Positions 2,499-40,526 of a stretch of DNA of 42,064 bases are shown one piece after another. The stretch spans positions 1 to 42,064 of the forward strand of contig JBBSJT010000005.1 in the NCBI GenBank assembly GCA_038257035.1, in the 5' to 3' direction. The number at the start of each line of letters is the position of its first letter. Within the stretch, counting starts at the first letter, position 1. The position numbers and the translations under genes were made by a program. Origin of the DNA: Chlamydiia bacterium. GTDB taxonomy: Bacteria > Chlamydiota > Chlamydiia > Chlamydiales > Parachlamydiaceae. The notes under the pieces are model-generated. The model saw nothing but the letters and a program-made list of their open reading frames with translations, was not told the DNA's origin and searched no databases.

Positions 2499-3146
2499 CT
2501 AGTCGACGAGTTTGAGGCTTGCCCAAAGGGAGGGTTGCTGCTCCACCTGGTATTCTGCGGAGGTTGCGGAAAATTCTTGTGGTCTTCCACCTGCTCGATT
2601 GATTCGATAAGAAAAGCCCAACCGATCAAATTGTTCAGGATCGTAACCTTGAAGACAATGGGAGGGAATAAATATTTCCAAAGAATAGGAAGTTGGGTTT
2701 TTTTTAACTTTTAACATGAGCTCATCTGACTCTATAAGCTCATGAGCATCTTCAGAGCGAAATTTAGTAATCTCCCCTGAAATATGACCATCAACAGCTT
2801 CCGGGAGAAAGAAAAAATGATGACAAAATCGAGTGTTAAAGCCTGATGTTTTTAAATCGCGTGTATCAAAGAAAAGCTCAATACCATCACCGTCCGTTAC
2901 ATCGGGGTAGCTACATCTTGTGATAGGCTCTTCAACAACTACGTAAAGCTCAATACCCTCTTTACTCCAACCCATAGAGAGCTTGGCAAAGCTCTCTTCA
3001 TTCATGAGAGCCGTAGTGTCCGGCATCTCATATAATTTACCTTTTGTCAAGCGTAAGCTAAAAGATGGTTTTTTTAAACGATGGCATTCCAAACTCATTT
3101 GAAAGAATTGGATCGGAGATAATGAAAAGCCATCGTTATCAAACAT
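2499..3146 (-). CDS. Hypothetical protein with DOMON/CBM9-like sugar-binding fold
   Basis: W..EGIELYVVV, GDGIELFFDTRD, YSLEIFIP and LGFSYRIN resemble CBM9-like beta-sandwich motifs. Confidence 0.55.
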   Translation of the reverse strand: MFDNDGFSLSPIQFFQMSLECHRLKKPSFSLRLTKGKLYEMPDTTALMNEESFAKLSMGWSKEGIELYVVVEEPITRCSYPDVTDGDGIELFFDTRDLKTSGFNTRFCHHFFFLPEAVDGHISGEITKFRSEDAHELIESDELMLKVKKNPTSYSLEIFIPSHCLQGYDPEQFDRLGFSYRINRAGGRPQEFSATSAEYQVEQQPSLWASLKLVD

Positions 3147-17389: not shown

Positions 17390-18109
17390 ATGTGGATGGG
17401 TAATTACGAAACGTTAAATCTTTTTGGACTTTTAATCCAATCTGTTTTGATTGAAAATTTTATTTTTGCCAATTTTTTAGGTATGTGTACCTATTTAGCT
17501 TGCTCAACAAAACTAAAAACAGCAAATGGTCTTGGCCTTGCAGTTGTATTTGTGCTTGGTATTTCCGGAATATTGAATTGGTGTGTGCATAAGTTTGTAA
17601 CGGCTCCCGGCGCTCTTTCATGGCTAAGTGTATTTGGTATTGATGCAGCATCTGTAAATCTTAATTTTCTTGAATTTCTTCTTTTTATTTCGGTGATTGC
17701 AGGTTTTGTTCAAGTATTGGAAATCATGATTGAAAAACTCGCTCCAAGCCTTTACCTTTCACTTGGTCTTTATCTTCCACTCATTGCCGTAAATTGTGCC
17801 ATCTTAGGTGCCTGCCTTTTTGCCGTCACTCGCGATTACCCTTTTTGGCCAAACCTTATTTATGTGTTTGGTTCAGGACTTGGATGGTGGCTTGCTATTG
17901 CTTTAATTGCTGCTATCAGAGAAAAGCTTGTAATTTCAAATGTGGTTCCTTCTTTAAGAGGAATGGGCATTACCTTTATCATGACGGGGTTAATGGCAAT
18001 GGCTTTCCAAGGCTTTACAGGTATTAAATTGGCAGTTCCAACGGGCACTTCAGTCGAGGCAGTGGACGCCAAAACACAGCCACCATCCCCGTACCCCACC
18101 ACCGACTAA
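17390..18109 (+). CDS. nqrE: Na+-NQR subunit E
   Basis: FLGMCTYLACS, LPLIAVNCAILG, LRGMGITFIMTGLMAMAF. Confidence 0.96.
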   Translation: MWMGNYETLNLFGLLIQSVLIENFIFANFLGMCTYLACSTKLKTANGLGLAVVFVLGISGILNWCVHKFVTAPGALSWLSVFGIDAASVNLNFLEFLLFISVIAGFVQVLEIMIEKLAPSLYLSLGLYLPLIAVNCAILGACLFAVTRDYPFWPNLIYVFGSGLGWWLAIALIAAIREKLVISNVVPSLRGMGITFIMTGLMAMAFQGFTGIKLAVPTGTSVEAVDAKTQPPSPYPTTD

Positions 18110-22726: not shown

Positions 22727-25171
22727 ATGAAAAACAAAATTTTGACCCTATTATTATTTCTTTGCCTTACCCGCCCCGCTATAAGTTTAGAATCCCCCAC
22801 AAAGCTTAAAACAAAAAAAGCCAATTGGCGCATTGAAAAAGTATCAGTTTTTGAATGTGGAAGTCCTGAAAAAATTATTTTTTACGCTCCTTCATTGAAT
22901 GATAAAAAAGAACTTCCTGTAAAAGAAATGTTATACAGTAGATCAGGACACTTAATTCAAGAGACTGATTTATTATGCAAGGATTCGCAATCAAACATTC
23001 TCTATCATGGCCCAAGCGTTCAATACGATGAAAAGGGACGTATTGCAAAAGTTTCTTTTTACCATGAGGGAATTCTAAATGGGACGATGAAAGATATTTA
23101 TCCCAATGGAATCGTTAAAAAAACAACTGCTTATAAGAATGGGGTAATGGATGGGCCTACAGTTGTTTATTTTGATAATGGCCAAATTGCAAAAACTTCT
23201 CATTATGTAAATGGCAAACTTGAAGGCGATCTGATCACCTACTACCCAAATGGCCTTAAAGAAAGTCATCTTTTCTATGAAAAGGGTGTTTTACAAAATG
23301 AAGCTATTTGCTGGTTTGATGATGGAGCGGTAAAATCCAAAAAATATTATCTTTATGGGCTTCTCAACGACACGTTTTCTAATAGGGCTTTAACAGAGTA
23401 TTATCAGGCAGGCATTGTAAGCGAAGTGCAAAGCTTTACTTATGGAATCCCTTCTGGTCCGCATATTAGATACCATCCGAATGGCCGTGAAAGTTACAAG
23501 GTTAATTATAAAAATGGGGTAAAAGTAGGTCTTGAAACGACCTACTCAGATCAGGGTGACTTAATTGGTGAAGGTGAATACTCTAAAGGAAAACCGATTG
23601 GTAGACATTATCTAAAAAATCAAAAGGGAATCCTCATCTCTCAGGCCCATTATGATGGAATAGGATTGTTAAAAGAGCCTATTTTGACATTTTATGAAAC
23701 CGGTGAAAAAAAAGAACAATATACAAAGACGGAAGAAGGTTACGCCCTAGAATTTTTGGAATGGTATACAAATGGGACTCTAAAAAAAAGATACCATTAT
23801 TTAAACGATTACTTTGATGGTTTACAAGAAGAGTTTCATGAAAATGGTAAACTCAAACTTGAGTGTCTTTATGCTGATGGAAAAAAAATTGGGACTTTCA
23901 AAGAGTGGTTTGCAAATGGACAAATTGCAAGTGAAATTCCTTTAATTAAGGGAAGAAGAAACGGTCTTGCAAAAACATTTTATGAAAATGGACAATTAAA
24001 AAGTGAATCTTTCTTCAATAATGCAGGAAACATTGAAGGATCAGAAAAATTTTATGAAGAAAATGGGCAATTAGTTTTTGAGGGCTCCTTTGAAAATGGT
24101 TTAAAATCAGGCATCCATCAAGAATGGTATGGAAATGGTGCCTTGAAAAGGAAAACAAATTTTATTAATGGGAAAATTCATGGCGCAGATGTTGAGTACT
24201 ATGAAAATGGCACACTAGCTTATAAAGCAAATTATGTGGATAATATCATCGATGGAGCTTACTTAAGTTACTTTGAAGATTCAACCATCCATGAGAAAAA
24301 GCAATTTGAAATGGGGAAACCTGTTGGCACTCATCTTGAGTATTACAAAAAAGAAACACCCGATTCCACCAATATCCTTGCTTGCACGCTTTGTTACGCA
24401 AATGGGAAATTAGATGGCGCACAAAAAAGATTTTATAAAAATGGTAAACCGGAAGTTGTTTTAAATTATAAAAACAATATCTTACACGGTCTTAAATCTT
24501 TGTGGAGCACGGAAGGAGATTTACTCGAGGAAGCCACATACTTGAATGGGGATTTAGACGGGCGTTATTTTCTTGTTAAAGAGGATGGGACAAAAATAAT
24601 TACCCACTATAAAAATAACTTAAAACATGGAACCGAAGAAATTTATTACCCTTTGCACCCTTTATTTGGTGAAGTTAAAGCCTTCGAAGCTACCTATGAA
24701 AAGGGGTTGATTCAGGGTGAGGCAGTAGAATTTAACGAAGCCGGAACAAAAGTTGCCTCAACTACCTATGAAAATGGTCTTAAGAATGGTCCTGCACTTT
24801 TTTATCACCCGAATGAAACTTTAATGATTGCAACCGAATTTAAAAACGATGAACAACATGGTCTAACATCTGAATACTATAAAAGCGGAAACCTGAAAGT
24901 CCAGGTGTTGTTTATAGATGATTTAAAAGAAGGCGAAGAAAAAAGCTACTTTGATACTTCTGCCCAACAAATAGCCACTTCAAAATTCTACAAAAAAGGG
25001 ATTTTAAATGGTTTATGGCAAGAGTGGAACAAACAAGGGGCTTTAGTTTTTCAGGCAGAGTACTATCAGGGTAAGCGAAATGGATTGCTCTCTAAATATA
25101 CGGAAGATGGGGTGCCTTATGTCAATCATCGCTATGAGAACGATGTCCTCATCGAAAAATTCGACCTCTAA
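22727..25171 (+). CDS. Secreted MORN-variant (YwqK-like) repeat protein
   Basis: Signal peptide, then many ~24-aa repeats G.....Y/F.ENGQ......Y.NG.. Confidence 0.85.
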   Translation: MKNKILTLLLFLCLTRPAISLESPTKLKTKKANWRIEKVSVFECGSPEKIIFYAPSLNDKKELPVKEMLYSRSGHLIQETDLLCKDSQSNILYHGPSVQYDEKGRIAKVSFYHEGILNGTMKDIYPNGIVKKTTAYKNGVMDGPTVVYFDNGQIAKTSHYVNGKLEGDLITYYPNGLKESHLFYEKGVLQNEAICWFDDGAVKSKKYYLYGLLNDTFSNRALTEYYQAGIVSEVQSFTYGIPSGPHIRYHPNGRESYKVNYKNGVKVGLETTYSDQGDLIGEGEYSKGKPIGRHYLKNQKGILISQAHYDGIGLLKEPILTFYETGEKKEQYTKTEEGYALEFLEWYTNGTLKKRYHYLNDYFDGLQEEFHENGKLKLECLYADGKKIGTFKEWFANGQIASEIPLIKGRRNGLAKTFYENGQLKSESFFNNAGNIEGSEKFYEENGQLVFEGSFENGLKSGIHQEWYGNGALKRKTNFINGKIHGADVEYYENGTLAYKANYVDNIIDGAYLSYFEDSTIHEKKQFEMGKPVGTHLEYYKKETPDSTNILACTLCYANGKLDGAQKRFYKNGKPEVVLNYKNNILHGLKSLWSTEGDLLEEATYLNGDLDGRYFLVKEDGTKIITHYKNNLKHGTEEIYYPLHPLFGEVKAFEATYEKGLIQGEAVEFNEAGTKVASTTYENGLKNGPALFYHPNETLMIATEFKNDEQHGLTSEYYKSGNLKVQVLFIDDLKEGEEKSYFDTSAQQIATSKFYKKGILNGLWQEWNKQGALVFQAEYYQGKRNGLLSKYTEDGVPYVNHRYENDVLIEKFDL

Positions 25172-26864: not shown

Positions 26865-26888
26865 AAAAATCAGTTAAAACTTGAGAAT

Positions 26889-27082
26889 TAATTATAAAGC
26901 AGGCCTACAGCCTGCAACCTAAAATACTAATACCTAGGGCGTTGCCCTAGGCTTTTACAAATCAGGCCTTCAGCCTGGAAAATAGCTCTTTTCAGGGCAA
27001 CGCCCTGGTTTATGAAAGCCTAGGGCAACGCCCTAGGTATGAGTACGTTATGATCGCAGGCTGAAGGCCTGCTTTATAGTTA
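26889..27082. repeat. Composite REP-like palindromic cluster
   Basis: Alternating hairpins GCAGGCCT(A/T)CAGCCTG and CCTAGGGCGTTGCCCTAGG, arranged as an overall inverted repeat between convergent genes. Confidence 0.85.
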
Positions 27083-27207
27083 CTTTTCTTAGCTTAAAGC
27101 ATATAGGTTTTAACCCGTTGCCTTGTAATGATTTAAGCAACAGGCTAAAGTCTACGGTACAATATTCAATGTCGCTACTTATGCAATTGTCTCGGTAGGG
27201 GTAAAAA

Positions 27208-27318
27208 CAAGATGCCAAGGACCAATGGCTAAAGATCCCGGAGGCCAGCAACACCAATGTTATCGTAGTCATAGTTGTTGCCGTCGACGCGGAGGCCAGA
27301 CAGGGCGAAGCCCCCCAC
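27208..27318 (-). other. Putative DGR variable repeat plus downstream IMH-like sequence
   Basis: The last 90 nt of the CDS are 53/90 G+C, and 14 of 18 consecutive codons end in C. The GC-rich CCATTGGTCCTTGGCATCTTG follows the stop. Confidence 0.55.
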
Positions 27319-28089
27319 AACTACTTGATAGCCTTGAACATTTTCTTGGCAACGCGTATAAGTCAATGTTTCATCGCTGAATAAACACTTTTTAGACCTT
27401 AAATATTCGGCAGCAAGAAGAACAATTGCCTCTACTGTTTTTGAAACCCTGTAGCCGGTTTGACCGTTTTTTTTATTTAGGCTATTTACTAAGATTAGTA
27501 GCCTGTCGTAAGTTTCATTTCGACTGTATGGAATCACATCAGTTGTCATTAGCACCCAACAGGATTTAATCGGTTTATCACCCTCTTGTTGAACAATTAA
27601 ATTCTCAATCAATCGATATCCCGATTCGTGATGGAAAAATTCCAGTTGTTCTTTTAAGAGTGCTCCCAAATTGCCAATGGTGATCGGTTTTCCTTTAATG
27701 GTTTCGGGAATACGGACCAACATGTGAGTATCGATAGTTTTATAACCTGGAAAGGCAGGGCAATCACTCTTTAAAATCTCATCGATATTATTGGGTAGTG
27801 ATGCATAGGCTTTGTCAATTTCATCATCGGATACGGTGCCTTCTCCACAAAATTCATTCCAATGTGAAGGATTAAAGCAAAAACCTGTGTAGATCATTTT
27901 TTTGGATAACATAGGATCGTCTGCCAATTGATTCCATTTCCTGTCTACCAAAGAACAATTTCGAAAATCCATAAAGTCACCATCGATTACCTTTGAAAAA
28001 ATATCTTTCCAGATTTCATTAGGTAAACCGCGTGATAATGATAGTAGCTTAGCAAAATTTACTGGCTGTTTATCAATGGTGACTATCAT
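27229..28089 (-). CDS. F-box protein with DGR-variable-region-like C-terminus (candidate effector)
   Basis: F-box LPNEIWKDIFSKV...RNCSLVDRKWNQLADDP; C-terminus YTRCQE...VVVGGFALSGLRVDGNNYDYDNIGVAGLRDL encoded by a GC-rich NNC tract. Confidence 0.8.
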   Translation of the reverse strand: MIVTIDKQPVNFAKLLSLSRGLPNEIWKDIFSKVIDGDFMDFRNCSLVDRKWNQLADDPMLSKKMIYTGFCFNPSHWNEFCGEGTVSDDEIDKAYASLPNNIDEILKSDCPAFPGYKTIDTHMLVRIPETIKGKPITIGNLGALLKEQLEFFHHESGYRLIENLIVQQEGDKPIKSCWVLMTTDVIPYSRNETYDRLLILVNSLNKKNGQTGYRVSKTVEAIVLLAAEYLRSKKCLFSDETLTYTRCQENVQGYQVVVGGFALSGLRVDGNNYDYDNIGVAGLRDL

Positions 28090-28098
28090 GAATTCCTA

Positions 28099-28680
28099 TT
28101 AGGTTTTGATGTATTGCTGCAGGAAGGAGCGACCGAGCCGTCGGGAACTTTTTAATTGAAGGTGGGTTAATTGATCAACGCCCGGGATGGAATCTTTTGA
28201 GTCTTCGATGAAAAGCTCTCCTCCATCCTTTAAAAGATTGCCATCATTAATTTTTTGCAAAATGAGCATACTAAAAGAAACTTGTTCGCCATCGATGAGT
28301 TTAAATGCATCATAAGGTGGGTCTACATAAATGATATCAAATTGTTTTTCACGTTTTTCAAGCTTGTCCATTTGGAGGAAAGCATCCCCATAAAGAACAT
28401 CCATTTGCCTAGGAATTTTAAGGTTTTTACCATTTGCTTCAATGGATGCTAGCGATTCTTTGGACTGATCTATAAAAGTTGCGTGTTTGGCGCCTCGACT
28501 TAAAGCTTCCAATCCGATAGCACCGGAACCTGCAAAAACATCAAGGAATAAGGCATCTTCGATGTACCCTTGGCAAATATTGAAAAGAGATTCTCTTAAT
28601 CTTGCAGACGTTGGCCTGACAATATCCCCTTTTGGGACGATCAATTTTTGATTTTTAAATTTTCCGCTAATAATATGCAT
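28099..28680 (-). CDS. rsmD: 16S rRNA m2G966 methyltransferase
   Basis: MHIISGKFK, VRPTSARLRESLFNI, LDVFAGSGAIGLEALSRGA, DPPY. Confidence 0.95.
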   Translation of the reverse strand: MHIISGKFKNQKLIVPKGDIVRPTSARLRESLFNICQGYIEDALFLDVFAGSGAIGLEALSRGAKHATFIDQSKESLASIEANGKNLKIPRQMDVLYGDAFLQMDKLEKREKQFDIIYVDPPYDAFKLIDGEQVSFSMLILQKINDGNLLKDGGELFIEDSKDSIPGVDQLTHLQLKSSRRLGRSFLQQYIKT

Positions 28681-38897: not shown

Positions 38898-40526
38898 TTA
38901 GATCCAGGATTGGACGATGGGAAAGCGTCTTCCAACGGTAAAGGCCTTCTCGGAAACACGAAGACCGGGAGGCGCTTGGCGGCGCTTATATTCATTTTGA
39001 TGGATTTTTTTGATGAGGTCTTTGACAATATTTAGAGGGTAATTGAATTTGTCTGCGATTTGATCTGGTGACATATGCTCTTCTAAATGGCTTATAAGGA
39101 CATTATCCACAATTTCATATTCAGGAAGTGTGTCTTGATCCTTTTGATTAGATCGCAATTCGGCTGTTGGGGCTCTTGTAAGAGTGTTTTTGGGAATAAT
39201 TTCATTTTCGCGGTTAATCCAATGGGACAAAGCATAAACTTGAGATTTAGTTACATCGCTAATTACAGCAAGACCTCCACACATATCTCCATAAAGAGTG
39301 CAATAACCAAGGGCCAATTCAGATTTATTACCTGTTGCTAATACAATCGATCCAAATTTATTGGAAAAAGACATTAAAATCATGCCACGAATTCGCGCTT
39401 GAATGTTTTCTTCGGTTACATCAAAAGGCTTGTTTTCAAAAAATGGTTCCAAAAGTTCAAGATAAGTTACAAAAGGTGATTCGATAGGAATTTCTTTAAA
39501 TTCGCAGCCCAAATTTTCACACAGCTTTTTAGCGTCGATGAGGCTGTCAGAGCTTGAAAATCTCGAGGGCATTGCTATGCAAAGAACATTATCTCTGCCT
39601 AATGCTTCAACTGCAATGCAGGCCACAAGTGCAGAATCTATTCCTCCTGAAAGACCAAGAACAGCTTTTTTAAAATTAAGCTTGTGAAAATAATCGCTGC
39701 ATCCAAGAACTAGTGCTTGATAAAGATTCGAATAGCTGTTTTCTACTATTTTTTTAGGTTTTAAACTTAAGGGTAAATCAACTACTAAAAAATCTTCTGT
39801 AAACCCTTTTGCCATCTCCAAAAGATCACCTTTTTCATTAAAAACCATGCTAAACCCATCAAAAACAAGGCTGTCATTGGCTCCAACTTGATTGCAATAA
39901 AAAAAAGGTGCTGAAATGGTTTTAGCTGCGTTTTCACAGATTGCCATTCTGTTTTTTTGGTGAGTCTGACAATACGGAGAGGCCGAAAGATTTAAAACCA
40001 AGTCGGGTTTTTGTTCTTTTAACTGAATGACAGGTTCTTTCAAGTATTTAGATTCATGTTCTGTATGACGCCAGATATCTTCACAAATAGTAATACCCAC
40101 TCGTTTGTCATTGATTTGCCAAATTTTTGAAAGGTGACCGGGTTTAAAATAGCGCCTTTCATCAAAAATATTATAGGTTGGAAGTAAAATTTTATCTTGA
40201 TAACCCAAGAGTTTTTGATTTGAAATAACTGCCGCACTGTTAAAAAGGGGCTTACCCCTAGCTTTGTTATTTCTTCTAATCGTGCCAACAACTGCCGTTA
40301 TCCCCTTTGTTGCTTGAATAATAGTTTCAAGTGCTAATTCATTTTGCTTGATGAAATCAGGCAAAGTCAAAAGATCTTCCGGAGGATAACCACATAGAAC
40401 AAGCTCTGAAAAAAGGATAATTTCGGCTTTTAAAGTTCTTGCCTCATCAATTGCCATGATGATTTTGGCAAGATTACCTTTAATGTCCCCTATGATTGGG
40501 TTCAGTTGTGCTAGAACAATACTCAT
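38898..40526 (-). CDS. nadE: Glutamine-dependent NAD+ synthetase
   Basis: Nitrilase domain (EL...GYPPEDL, K.LLPTY..FDE.RYF, ICEDIW) plus GLSGGIDSA, ENIQARIRG, TGNKSE, TLYGD, NEYKRRQAP. Confidence 0.96.
   Translation of the reverse strand: MSIVLAQLNPIIGDIKGNLAKIIMAIDEARTLKAEIILFSELVLCGYPPEDLLTLPDFIKQNELALETIIQATKGITAVVGTIRRNNKARGKPLFNSAAVISNQKLLGYQDKILLPTYNIFDERRYFKPGHLSKIWQINDKRVGITICEDIWRHTEHESKYLKEPVIQLKEQKPDLVLNLSASPYCQTHQKNRMAICENAAKTISAPFFYCNQVGANDSLVFDGFSMVFNEKGDLLEMAKGFTEDFLVVDLPLSLKPKKIVENSYSNLYQALVLGCSDYFHKLNFKKAVLGLSGGIDSALVACIAVEALGRDNVLCIAMPSRFSSSDSLIDAKKLCENLGCEFKEIPIESPFVTYLELLEPFFENKPFDVTEENIQARIRGMILMSFSNKFGSIVLATGNKSELALGYCTLYGDMCGGLAVISDVTKSQVYALSHWINRENEIIPKNTLTRAPTAELRSNQKDQDTLPEYEIVDNVLISHLEEHMSPDQIADKFNYPLNIVKDLIKKIHQNEYKRRQAPPGLRVSEKAFTVGRRFPIVQSWI

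Follow-up and report, generated by a model that had tools for sequence, protein, structure and literature searches.

An F-box gene of the Parachlamydiaceae with a 3′ end homologous to the template repeats of diversity-generating retroelements

The F-box gene, its domains and its family

The window (the whole stretch of DNA analysed, 42,064 nt in length) carries on its reverse strand a gene whose predicted product joins an N-terminal F-box to a C-terminal domain of C-type-lectin (CLec)/FGE-like type, the last part of which is encoded by a stretch resembling the variable region (VR) of a diversity-generating retroelement (DGR). The features of the locus, several of them defined by comparison with the template repeats (TRs) of related genomes, are as follows.

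27229 to 28089, reverse strand: coding sequence of 286 amino acids (stop included), comprising a short N-terminal tail, F-box, CLec/FGE-like domain and variable region
27898 to 28026, reverse strand: F-box-like domain, residues 22–64, from Pfam PF12937 and helices 24–70 in the structural model
27232 to 27801, reverse strand: predicted C-type-lectin/FGE-like domain, residues ~97–286, from VIA-align matches of the model
27238 to 27324, reverse strand: DGR variable-region-type stretch, residues 256–284, 87 coding bases, from homology to the TRs of relatives
27256 to 27291, reverse strand: codons 267 and 269–278, corresponding to adenine-bearing TR codons (AAC, TAT, GAC, ATT), the hypervariable loop of the family
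27235 to 27255, reverse strand: GC-rich 3′ VR boundary (IMH-like), a subtype variant common to two metagenome genes
27208 to 27228, reverse strand: post-stop tail with repeated YTTGG words, read from the sequence and conserved after the VRs of relatives

The N-terminal F-box named in a preliminary description of this DNA is borne out by a Pfam scan of the window protein, in which PF12937 scores 25.8 bits (cut-off 24.3), and by a profile of the family (33 members), which matches F-box chains exclusively when compared with the PDB (FBXL5 best, E 2e-6; also FBXW8 and Skp2). FGE-sulfatase, LRR and TPR domains were all absent from the Pfam scan of the protein, and an NCBIfam scan gave zero matches.

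The fold of the C-terminal domain was read from an AlphaFold model built on the family alignment, with a pLDDT of 90.3 and a pTM of 0.87. A Foldseek comparison of the model with the PDB returned nothing at E ≤ 1e-3, its weak top rows being FGE-fold entries. A wide VIA-align search with residues ~97–286 matched PvdO (Z 8.7), EgtB (Z 8.2) and pFGE (Z 7.3), together with TvpA, the variable protein 1 of Treponema denticola (Z 8.7, rmsd 3.5 over 149 aligned residues), and other DGR variable proteins, Mtd (Z 6.2) and TaqVP (Z 5.6); dozens of C-type lectin domains occupy the lower rows at Z ~5, and nearly all 50 rows are of FGE or C-type-lectin type by title. A VIA-align Z near 8 is not decisive taken singly; the uniformity of the list, combined with alignment from C-terminus to C-terminus, makes the CLec/FGE fold the clear reading. 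TvpA, Mtd and TaqVP, all three of them DGR variable proteins of solved structure, are among the matches, in agreement with the fold anticipated in the preliminary description, and the clear reading of the model places the VR-bearing domain in the fold class, CLec/FGE, to which known DGR targets belong. As judged from sequence and model together, the protein is a eukaryotic-type adaptor module, the F-box, fused to a predicted binding domain of C-type-lectin/FGE fold.

The host of the gene is a chlamydia-like soil bacterium of the Parachlamydiaceae, represented by a draft genome (G000) of 2.37 Mb in 210 contigs, 95.8% complete and with a GC content of 0.36. The gene sits mid-contig among housekeeping genes, mobile genes being absent beside it. 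Family matches number 28 inside the window genome, and a large protein collection holds 51 other relatives, with a best identity of 67% by BLASTP and 69% in the family alignment; in two genomes of the same genus the best matches reach only 45–47%, a close ortholog being absent. The family alignment reveals a fixed C-terminal scaffold, approximately YTRCQE..G.Q.VGGF..SGL.V followed by IGVA.LR.F, enclosing ~10 hypervariable residues.

Retroelement cassettes in related Parachlamydiaceae

A Pfam search for reverse transcriptases (RTs) covered 61 genomes of the same family and found them in 30. Most of the matches are multi-copy open reading frames (ORFs) of ~420–430 aa, which we take, from their size and copy number, to be of group II intron type. 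A separate class comprises seven matches in six genomes, spanning profile positions 8–204 or 9–204 within open frames of 279–361 aa, and at least two of these seven lie directly downstream of homologs of the window protein. The best PDB match of the RT is 8ub7 (E 2e-38 over the whole length), presumably the DGR RT of a Bordetella phage, which scores far above group II, retron and Drt RTs.

Cassettes of varying completeness accompany these RTs. G002, a genome of the same genus as the window, encodes a 376-aa homolog with an F-box at 31.8 bits and a C-terminus ending in VVGGFAPAGLFVYYDSYDDDNFGVAALRKF, and a convergent DGR-type RT starts 137 nt downstream of it, cut by the contig end. A VR/TR pair and an RT share one contig in G004, G005, G059 (two loci) and G062, the RT of the last being partial. 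The full set, present in G059, G004 and G005, consists of the target, a convergent RT of 345–349 aa, avd or an Avd-like gene encoded on the opposite strand, and a TR, which is a non-coding repeat of the target 3′ end lying beyond avd in the orientation of the RT. The G059 Avd scores 84.9 with NCBIfam NF033474, ‘diversity-generating retroelement protein Avd’ (cut-off 80), and 70.1 with Pfam bAvd (cut-off 40); this family-profile scan covers the G059 copy alone, and the Avd-like gene of G005 was read over its first 66 codons. The preliminary description had made its interpretation depend on an RT or a template repeat in this genome or in close relatives, and the relatives G002, G004, G005, G059 and G062 supply them.

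Targets in G002, G059 and G004 have F-boxes above the Pfam cut-offs, and a single TR in G004 matches three gene ends, two of them belonging to F-box proteins (one above and one below the Pfam cut-off). Homologs demonstrable as DGR targets occur in G002, G004, G005, G059 (two loci and three remote copies), G062 and G043. Two candidates were set aside: a by-eye impression of the G005 target as a BTB protein was dropped, no Pfam domain being found at E ≤ 0.01, and the repeats at a G071 locus (L050) are those of another type of target, their mismatches falling on the opposite strand.

The differences between VRs and TRs in these genomes are concentrated at template adenines, as a DGR requires of its targets and as the preliminary description had anticipated for paralogs. 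Eight comparisons were made, five with VRs of G059 (two adjacent, three remote) and one each with the G002 VR (against a G059 TR), G005 and G062; together they differ at 72 of 161 TR adenines versus 6 of 527 other positions (Fisher p 1e-44); the six non-adenine differences are confined to G059a, G059b and G005, with 1–3 in each, and the other five comparisons have 0. On the closed chromosome of G059 there are two TRs, 99% alike, and two adjacent VRs; three further copies of VR type lie at a distance of ~600 kb from the RT, matching at all 66 non-adenine sites and indicating that remote DGR targets occur in this family. The genes flanking the G059 cassette encode a resolvase and a Tn3-type transposase, and the VR scaffold together with the following 40 nt is identical between two genera (G002 and G059). 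The family to which the window protein belongs is one that DGRs of the Parachlamydiaceae diversify.

Origin and present state of the window tail

The jump to 59% GC reported for the last 90 nt of the gene is confirmed, these coding bases having a GC content of 0.59 versus 0.37 for the remainder, and the increase of +0.22 ranks fourth among 1577 ORFs of at least 150 aa (mean +0.015, sd 0.066). The codon pattern described with it is equally readable in the sequence: the best 18-codon stretch of the gene holds 14 C-ending codons, eight NNC codons being consecutive (GGC CTC CGC GTC GAC GGC AAC AAC). Twelve of the 1577 ORFs attain 14 of 18, nearly all at their 3′ ends and mostly in unrelated housekeeping genes. 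An excess of C-ending codons near stop codons is general in the window genome and unexplained.

Since this excess is genome-wide, a run of C-ending codons alone cannot identify a DGR, and a reading has to be weighed in which the tail owes nothing to a DGR and reflects a conserved C-terminal motif of ordinary kind (Gly/Ala/Arg codons), on top of the preference of the genome for C-ending codons near stops. Third-position C, 0.15 genome-wide, climbs to 0.25 across the final 20 codons, with T falling (1350 ORFs); at least eight C-ending codons are found in the last 20 of 204 of 1350 genes, compared with 10 of 1350 for mid-gene windows; similar tails occur on unrelated housekeeping genes; and the scaffold residues are conserved in the family, all of which agree with such a motif. 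Within the family the window tail, at 59% GC, stands apart from the tails of 25 of the 28 matches in the window genome, which have 33–47%; the tails of two other genes (contigs C27 and C32) are likewise GC-rich and VR-like but belong to another subtype, for which no TR was found in the window genome.

What distinguishes the tail is its nucleotide homology to the DGR template repeats of relatives. Positions 27238–27324 are 85% and 84% identical to the TRs of G062, 83% and 82% to those of G059, and 82% to a TR-like copy in G037, five TR or TR-like copies in three other genomes; the matches to the TRs of relatives have E values of 1e-19 to 3e-22, and identity to other VRs is only 74–80%. A tail nearer to TRs than to VRs bears the signature of a VR, because each VR is a TR with scrambled adenines, and coding constraint cannot explain a match to non-coding TRs, because the proteins are only ~45% identical. 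Across 26 family proteins, mean column entropy is 2.80 bits at the 12 adenine-bearing TR codons, 1.07 at the 18 codons lacking adenine and 1.38 in the rest of the domain (adenine-bearing versus other codons, p 1.5e-5); this family-wide comparison, proposed as a check for the 3′ ends of paralogs, places the variation at TR-adenine codons. The reading without a DGR fails on each of these points, namely the 82–85% identity to non-coding TRs of other genera, the closer resemblance of the tail to TRs than to other VRs, and the coincidence of variable codons with TR adenine codons; it appears close to refuted, and its probability is judged to be minimal.

Of the 20 adenines in the nearest TR, a foreign one, 7 differ in the tail, as do 6 of the 66 non-adenine sites (p 0.0095), an adenine bias that is only moderate. 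Four of the six non-adenine differences are common to two metagenome genes and may reflect an unseen TR subtype rather than decay; the remaining two, both C-to-T changes at wobble positions, occur in the window copy alone. We hold it very probable that 27238–27324 was once copied with adenine-specific errors from a TR of the kind that relatives retain, a DGR origin that explains a GC-rich, NNC-rich tail in a genome of 36% GC. The DGR-like variable region claimed in the preliminary description is thereby supported by TR homology of 82–85%, the predicted CLec fold, and the DGRs beside homologs in relatives.

The 3′ boundary of the VR departs by 4–5 changes from the form shared unaltered by 11 of 12 other TR/VR copies. 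Beyond the stop codon, the tail described as continuing there is readable at 27208–27228, and its YTTGG words recur downstream of the VRs in G002, G005, G059 and one metagenome contig. An IMH with a downstream hairpin had also been envisaged; the GC-rich boundary is present, as a subtype variant, and the hairpin is rejected, a DNA fold of 27165–27262 on the reverse strand reaching −6 kcal/mol, no better than shuffles (z +1.17), with folds downstream of the VR in G059 and G002 likewise not significant.

The absence of RT, Avd and template repeat, first stated for the window, extends to the whole 95.8% complete draft: searches found no RT (PF00078, tblastn with the G005 RT, and the G059 RT protein), no Avd (PF22296, tblastn with Avd), no second copy of the tail or TR (blastn at word size 7, four foreign TRs as queries, DNA search), and neither a resolvase nor a Tn3 of the sort that adjoins the cassette in G059. 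A cognate non-coding copy beside an RT and Avd, which the preliminary description had proposed to look for in this genome, did not appear in the draft. Because the draft is without RT, Avd and TR, and 6 of 66 non-adenine sites set the tail apart from the nearest TR, the copy would be either frozen or live with an unassembled cassette. The reading that we favour, with modest confidence, is that the gene belongs to an F-box–CLec DGR family and has a DGR-written tail, the window copy being a frozen or stranded VR that now evolves by ordinary mutation.

A live remote target is a serious alternative, though one to which we assign less than an even chance: an RT-Avd-TR cassette, unassembled or unbinned, would act in trans and rewrite the VR, as appears to happen at the remote VRs of G059. 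Those copies, ~600 kb from their RT and free of non-adenine mismatches, provide a precedent, and a cassette could easily be missed in a draft because those in the metagenome-assembled genomes of relatives lie at contig ends, as does the RT of G002 in the same genus, or on contigs of 1.6–5 kb. The tail retains its high GC content and post-stop motif, and the 59% GC argues against a long time without rewriting; the distinct subtype of the 3′ boundary, common to two metagenome genes, likewise suits a live system. In sequencing run X1, depth over 27270–27316 climbs from 6.3 to 15.8–18.5, a rise implying that sequences like that part of the tail exist in the sample outside the assembly, although the extra depth could stem from another organism.

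Several observations count against a live target and for the frozen copy. The RT, Avd, TR and flanking transposon genes are missing from a nearly complete draft, and a live system would need two missing TRs, because the C27 and C32 tails belong to a different subtype. A TR of the window subtype was found in none of 73 family genomes. A metagenome pattern scan for the 3′ boundary subtype, with a pattern that misses TRs ending CGGAA, gave at least 121 stretches, and the 80 loci examined among them included no RT and no TR of the window subtype; real relatives within these 80 lie on one contig, as two tandem genes (L068 and L069) of the same subtype, with no RT in the 5.7 kb of contig examined. 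The Logan contigs of X1 include one of 1020 nt that covers the gene at a depth of 6.28 with one difference, and no variant is apparent in it, although such contigs drop rare variants. The six non-adenine differences out of 66 exceed those of the other comparisons, which have 0 (five) or 1–3 (three).

Horizontal transfer or gene conversion offers a further account, in which the gene or its 3′ end was acquired ready-written from a DGR-bearing relative and no DGR ever acted on it here. The resolvase and Tn3-type transposase bordering the G059 cassette, and the VR scaffold with 40 nt following it that is identical in G002 and G059, point to mobility, and the gene lacks a close ortholog in the two same-genus genomes (best 45–47%). 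The remainder of the gene is, however, ordinary in composition at 37% GC; it sits between housekeeping genes with no mobile gene beside it; and the 28 family matches in the genome indicate long residence of the family, so that ready-written acquisition is considered very unlikely.

Known systems and the proposed function

The known targets of DGRs are receptor-binding proteins of phages, surface proteins of bacteria and some intracellular sensors. The DGR target that scores highest in the VIA-align search, TvpA (PDB 2y3c), is a lipoprotein at the surface of a bacterium that lives freely or on host surfaces; it shares with the window protein a CLec/FGE fold with a C-terminal variable region, the alignment reaching both C-termini, and differs in being without an F-box and in having 11% sequence identity to the window protein. 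The prototype, the DGR of Bordetella phage BPP-1 (Mtd, bRT and bAvd), resembles the cassettes of the relatives in its RT, its Avd and the adenine-specific VR/TR differences, and its Mtd is among the matches of the model (Z 6.2); its layout differs, the chlamydial target being convergent with the RT and avd lying on the opposite strand between TR and RT, and its target is a phage receptor-binding protein, whereas the chlamydial target is an F-box protein with no significant hairpin after the VR. The machinery is therefore a DGR of known kind with an unusual layout, and the fold class of the target is classic.

Multidomain, non-surface targets have precedents as well, since DGR-diversified FGE/CLec domains are fused to intracellular signalling modules (STAND NTPases, kinases). 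Such fusions resemble the window family in pairing a DGR-variable CLec sensor with an effector module, but act inside the bacterium, whereas the partner module of the window family is a eukaryotic-type F-box, for which we know of no partner in bacteria. Legionella pneumophila offers a second parallel, as an amoeba-associated intracellular bacterium with a DGR and, separately, F-box effectors; its DGR target LdtA is a surface lipoprotein and not an F-box protein, and two features residing there in separate proteins are combined in one by the window family. The Legionella F-box effector AnkB is described in the available part of a study of F-box and BTB effectors (Domman et al. 2014, PMC4209131).

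That study, in its available part, documents expanded F-box/BTB effector families (NEX1, NEX2 and PEX1) in the Parachlamydiaceae, which share with the window family the bacterial family, an N-terminal F-box with a C-terminal binding domain, and many paralogs; they couple F-box or BTB domains to LRR or TPR, their variety being explained by gene birth and death, and in a heterologous assay representatives of the four published families proved to carry a signal for type III secretion (PMC4209131). Retroelements go unmentioned in the portion of that account available for these expansions. The window family differs in that its predicted binding domain is CLec/FGE-like, is retroelement-diversified in relatives, and lacks LRR and TPR.

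Outside the subscription journals, no paper was found that connects DGRs to F-box proteins or names a chlamydial target of a DGR, in keeping with the preliminary description, which knew of no account of such a coupling; what was found consists of mentions at phylum level only. A large DGR catalogue groups such genomes as ‘Bacteria:PVC’, and the terms ‘F-box’, PF12937, PF00646 and ‘Chlamydi’ were not found in the part of its supplements available (PMC8144416). What is new is the partner domain, a eukaryotic-type F-box, together with the presumed site of action, in obligate intracellular bacteria.

A mechanism may be sketched on this basis. In the relatives the TR would be transcribed, RT and Avd would produce adenine-mutagenised cDNA from the TR RNA, and this cDNA would replace the VR, altering up to ~12 codons (267, 269–278 and 285 in the window protein) on the ligand-binding face of the CLec domain. 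The F-box–CLec protein would reach the host cytosol, as suggested by its F-box and by the effectors in the available part of PMC4209131; for the window protein itself we infer type III secretion, by analogy, from the eukaryotic-type domain and the secretion assays of other F-box families reported in the same part of that study. The F-box would then dock on host Skp1 as an SCF substrate receptor, and the variable face would select host proteins for ubiquitination.

The most far-reaching version of this mechanism holds that chlamydial DGRs hypermutate the substrate face of F-box adaptors in the host cytosol, some of them with Inc-like membrane anchors, with paralogs as duplicated frozen variants and the window copy live through an unassembled cassette; it is advanced tentatively, and as a whole we regard it as rather doubtful. 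If true, a DGR would diversify the choice of host proteins delivered to the host SCF ubiquitin ligase, suggesting that symbionts can quickly re-aim which host proteins are marked for destruction. Such a system would be a natural, self-renewing library of degradation adaptors, analogous to engineered degrader libraries, and would give amoeba symbionts a mechanism of fast host adaptation, adding to the birth-and-death account in the available part of PMC4209131. The idea is directly testable, closed-genome relatives such as G059 having complete cassettes with adjacent and remote F-box targets.

As a further observation on these targets, inspection by eye of those of G002 and G059 shows the F-box to be preceded by a hydrophobic stretch with two lobes, which would fit a candidate inclusion-membrane anchor.

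Paralogous tails and contig depth at the probable variable region

Three further genes of the draft genome are relatives of the F-box gene with the probable diversity-generating retroelement (DGR) variable region, two lying on other contigs of the assembly and one within the window:

C27:10525-11358, (-), locus L022: paralog with a GC-rich, NNC-rich tail (GC fraction of the last 90 nt, 0.59)
C32:6101-7045, (-), locus L020: paralog with a GC-rich, NNC-rich tail (GC fraction of the last 90 nt, 0.51)
Window ~1245-2204, (-), L017:940-1899: second F-box-family member, 320 aa

The tails of the C27 and C32 paralogs constitute a second subtype of variable-region-like sequence, and their 3′ ends are similar to that of the template repeat in the related Parachlamydiaceae genome G004; no F-box match was returned for either protein in a Pfam scan, and no template repeat matching the two tails was found in the draft genome. 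The F-box-family member in the window has 34% identity across the F-box part, and its tail is AT-rich (0.34 GC). Summed contig depth in sequencing run X1 rises from 6.3 to 15.8–18.5 across window positions 27270-27316, covering part of the variable-region scaffold only, and similar sequence is therefore present in the sample outside the assembly; this could be a template repeat, another variable region, or sequence from another organism.

DGR loci of related genomes and the dispersed repeat

DGR loci and associated features were identified in related genomes, alongside a dispersed repeat downstream of the F-box gene in the window:

L048 7198-8725: DGR locus, G059
L047 7001-8507: DGR locus, G004
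L033/L045: DGR locus, G005
L046 7338-8468: DGR-linked F-box target with a hydrophobic stretch, G002
L048 5968-7062: DGR-linked F-box target with a hydrophobic stretch, G059
G059:C1:371670-371770 and 373597-373697, locus L059: remote, mutually identical variable-region-like copies
L050 (G071:C5:8000-23000): short reverse transcriptase, from a Pfam search, beside a tandem paralog array
Window 26883-27095: self-complementary dispersed repeat of ~200 nt, MITE/REP-like

An unusual arrangement is common to the G059, G004 and G005 loci, where reverse transcriptase and target gene are convergent and, separating template repeat from reverse transcriptase, there is an avd or avd-like gene in the opposite orientation, followed in G059 by a resolvase and a Tn3-type transposase. 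The dispersed repeat, which starts 134 nt 3′ of the F-box gene's stop codon, lies at approximately the position of the convergent reverse transcriptase in relatives; it has 106 blastn matches across 40 contigs of the draft genome, several located at the ends of contigs, with depth above 100 in contigs of runs X1 and X2. The remote G059 copies carry a 12-nt insertion absent from the template repeat, despite which non-adenine mismatches to the template number 0 of 66. In G071, the short reverse transcriptase adjoins a tandem array of 3–4 paralogous genes. L050 13756-13847 holds a repeat that matches the ends of these genes, the differences falling mostly at T in the orientation used; this locus is probably a DGR with another target type.

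By eye, the G002 and G059 F-box targets feature a two-lobed hydrophobic stretch of ~60 residues N-terminal to the F-box, reminiscent of chlamydial inclusion-membrane proteins.

Codon usage at gene ends and a repeat-rich reading frame

C-ending codons are over-represented genome-wide in the last ~20 codons of genes in the draft genome, with examples in the window:

28099-28680, (-): C-ending 3′ codon enrichment
38898-40526, (-): C-ending 3′ codon enrichment
2499-3146, (-): C-ending 3′ codon enrichment
17390-18109, (+): C-ending 3′ codon enrichment

Across gene ends genome-wide, third-position C increases from 0.15 to 0.25 while third-position T falls from 0.385 to 0.29, and at two-fold NNY codons C/(C+T) shifts from 0.25–0.28 to 0.43; no C excess was found beyond the stop codon. 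At least 8 of 20 codons end in C at 204 of 1350 gene ends, compared with 10 of 1350 mid-gene windows.

One further reading frame was noted by eye:

22727-25171, (+): 814-aa ORF

Its N-terminus is signal-like, and short tandem repeats following a Y.NG...G pattern make up almost all of the protein.
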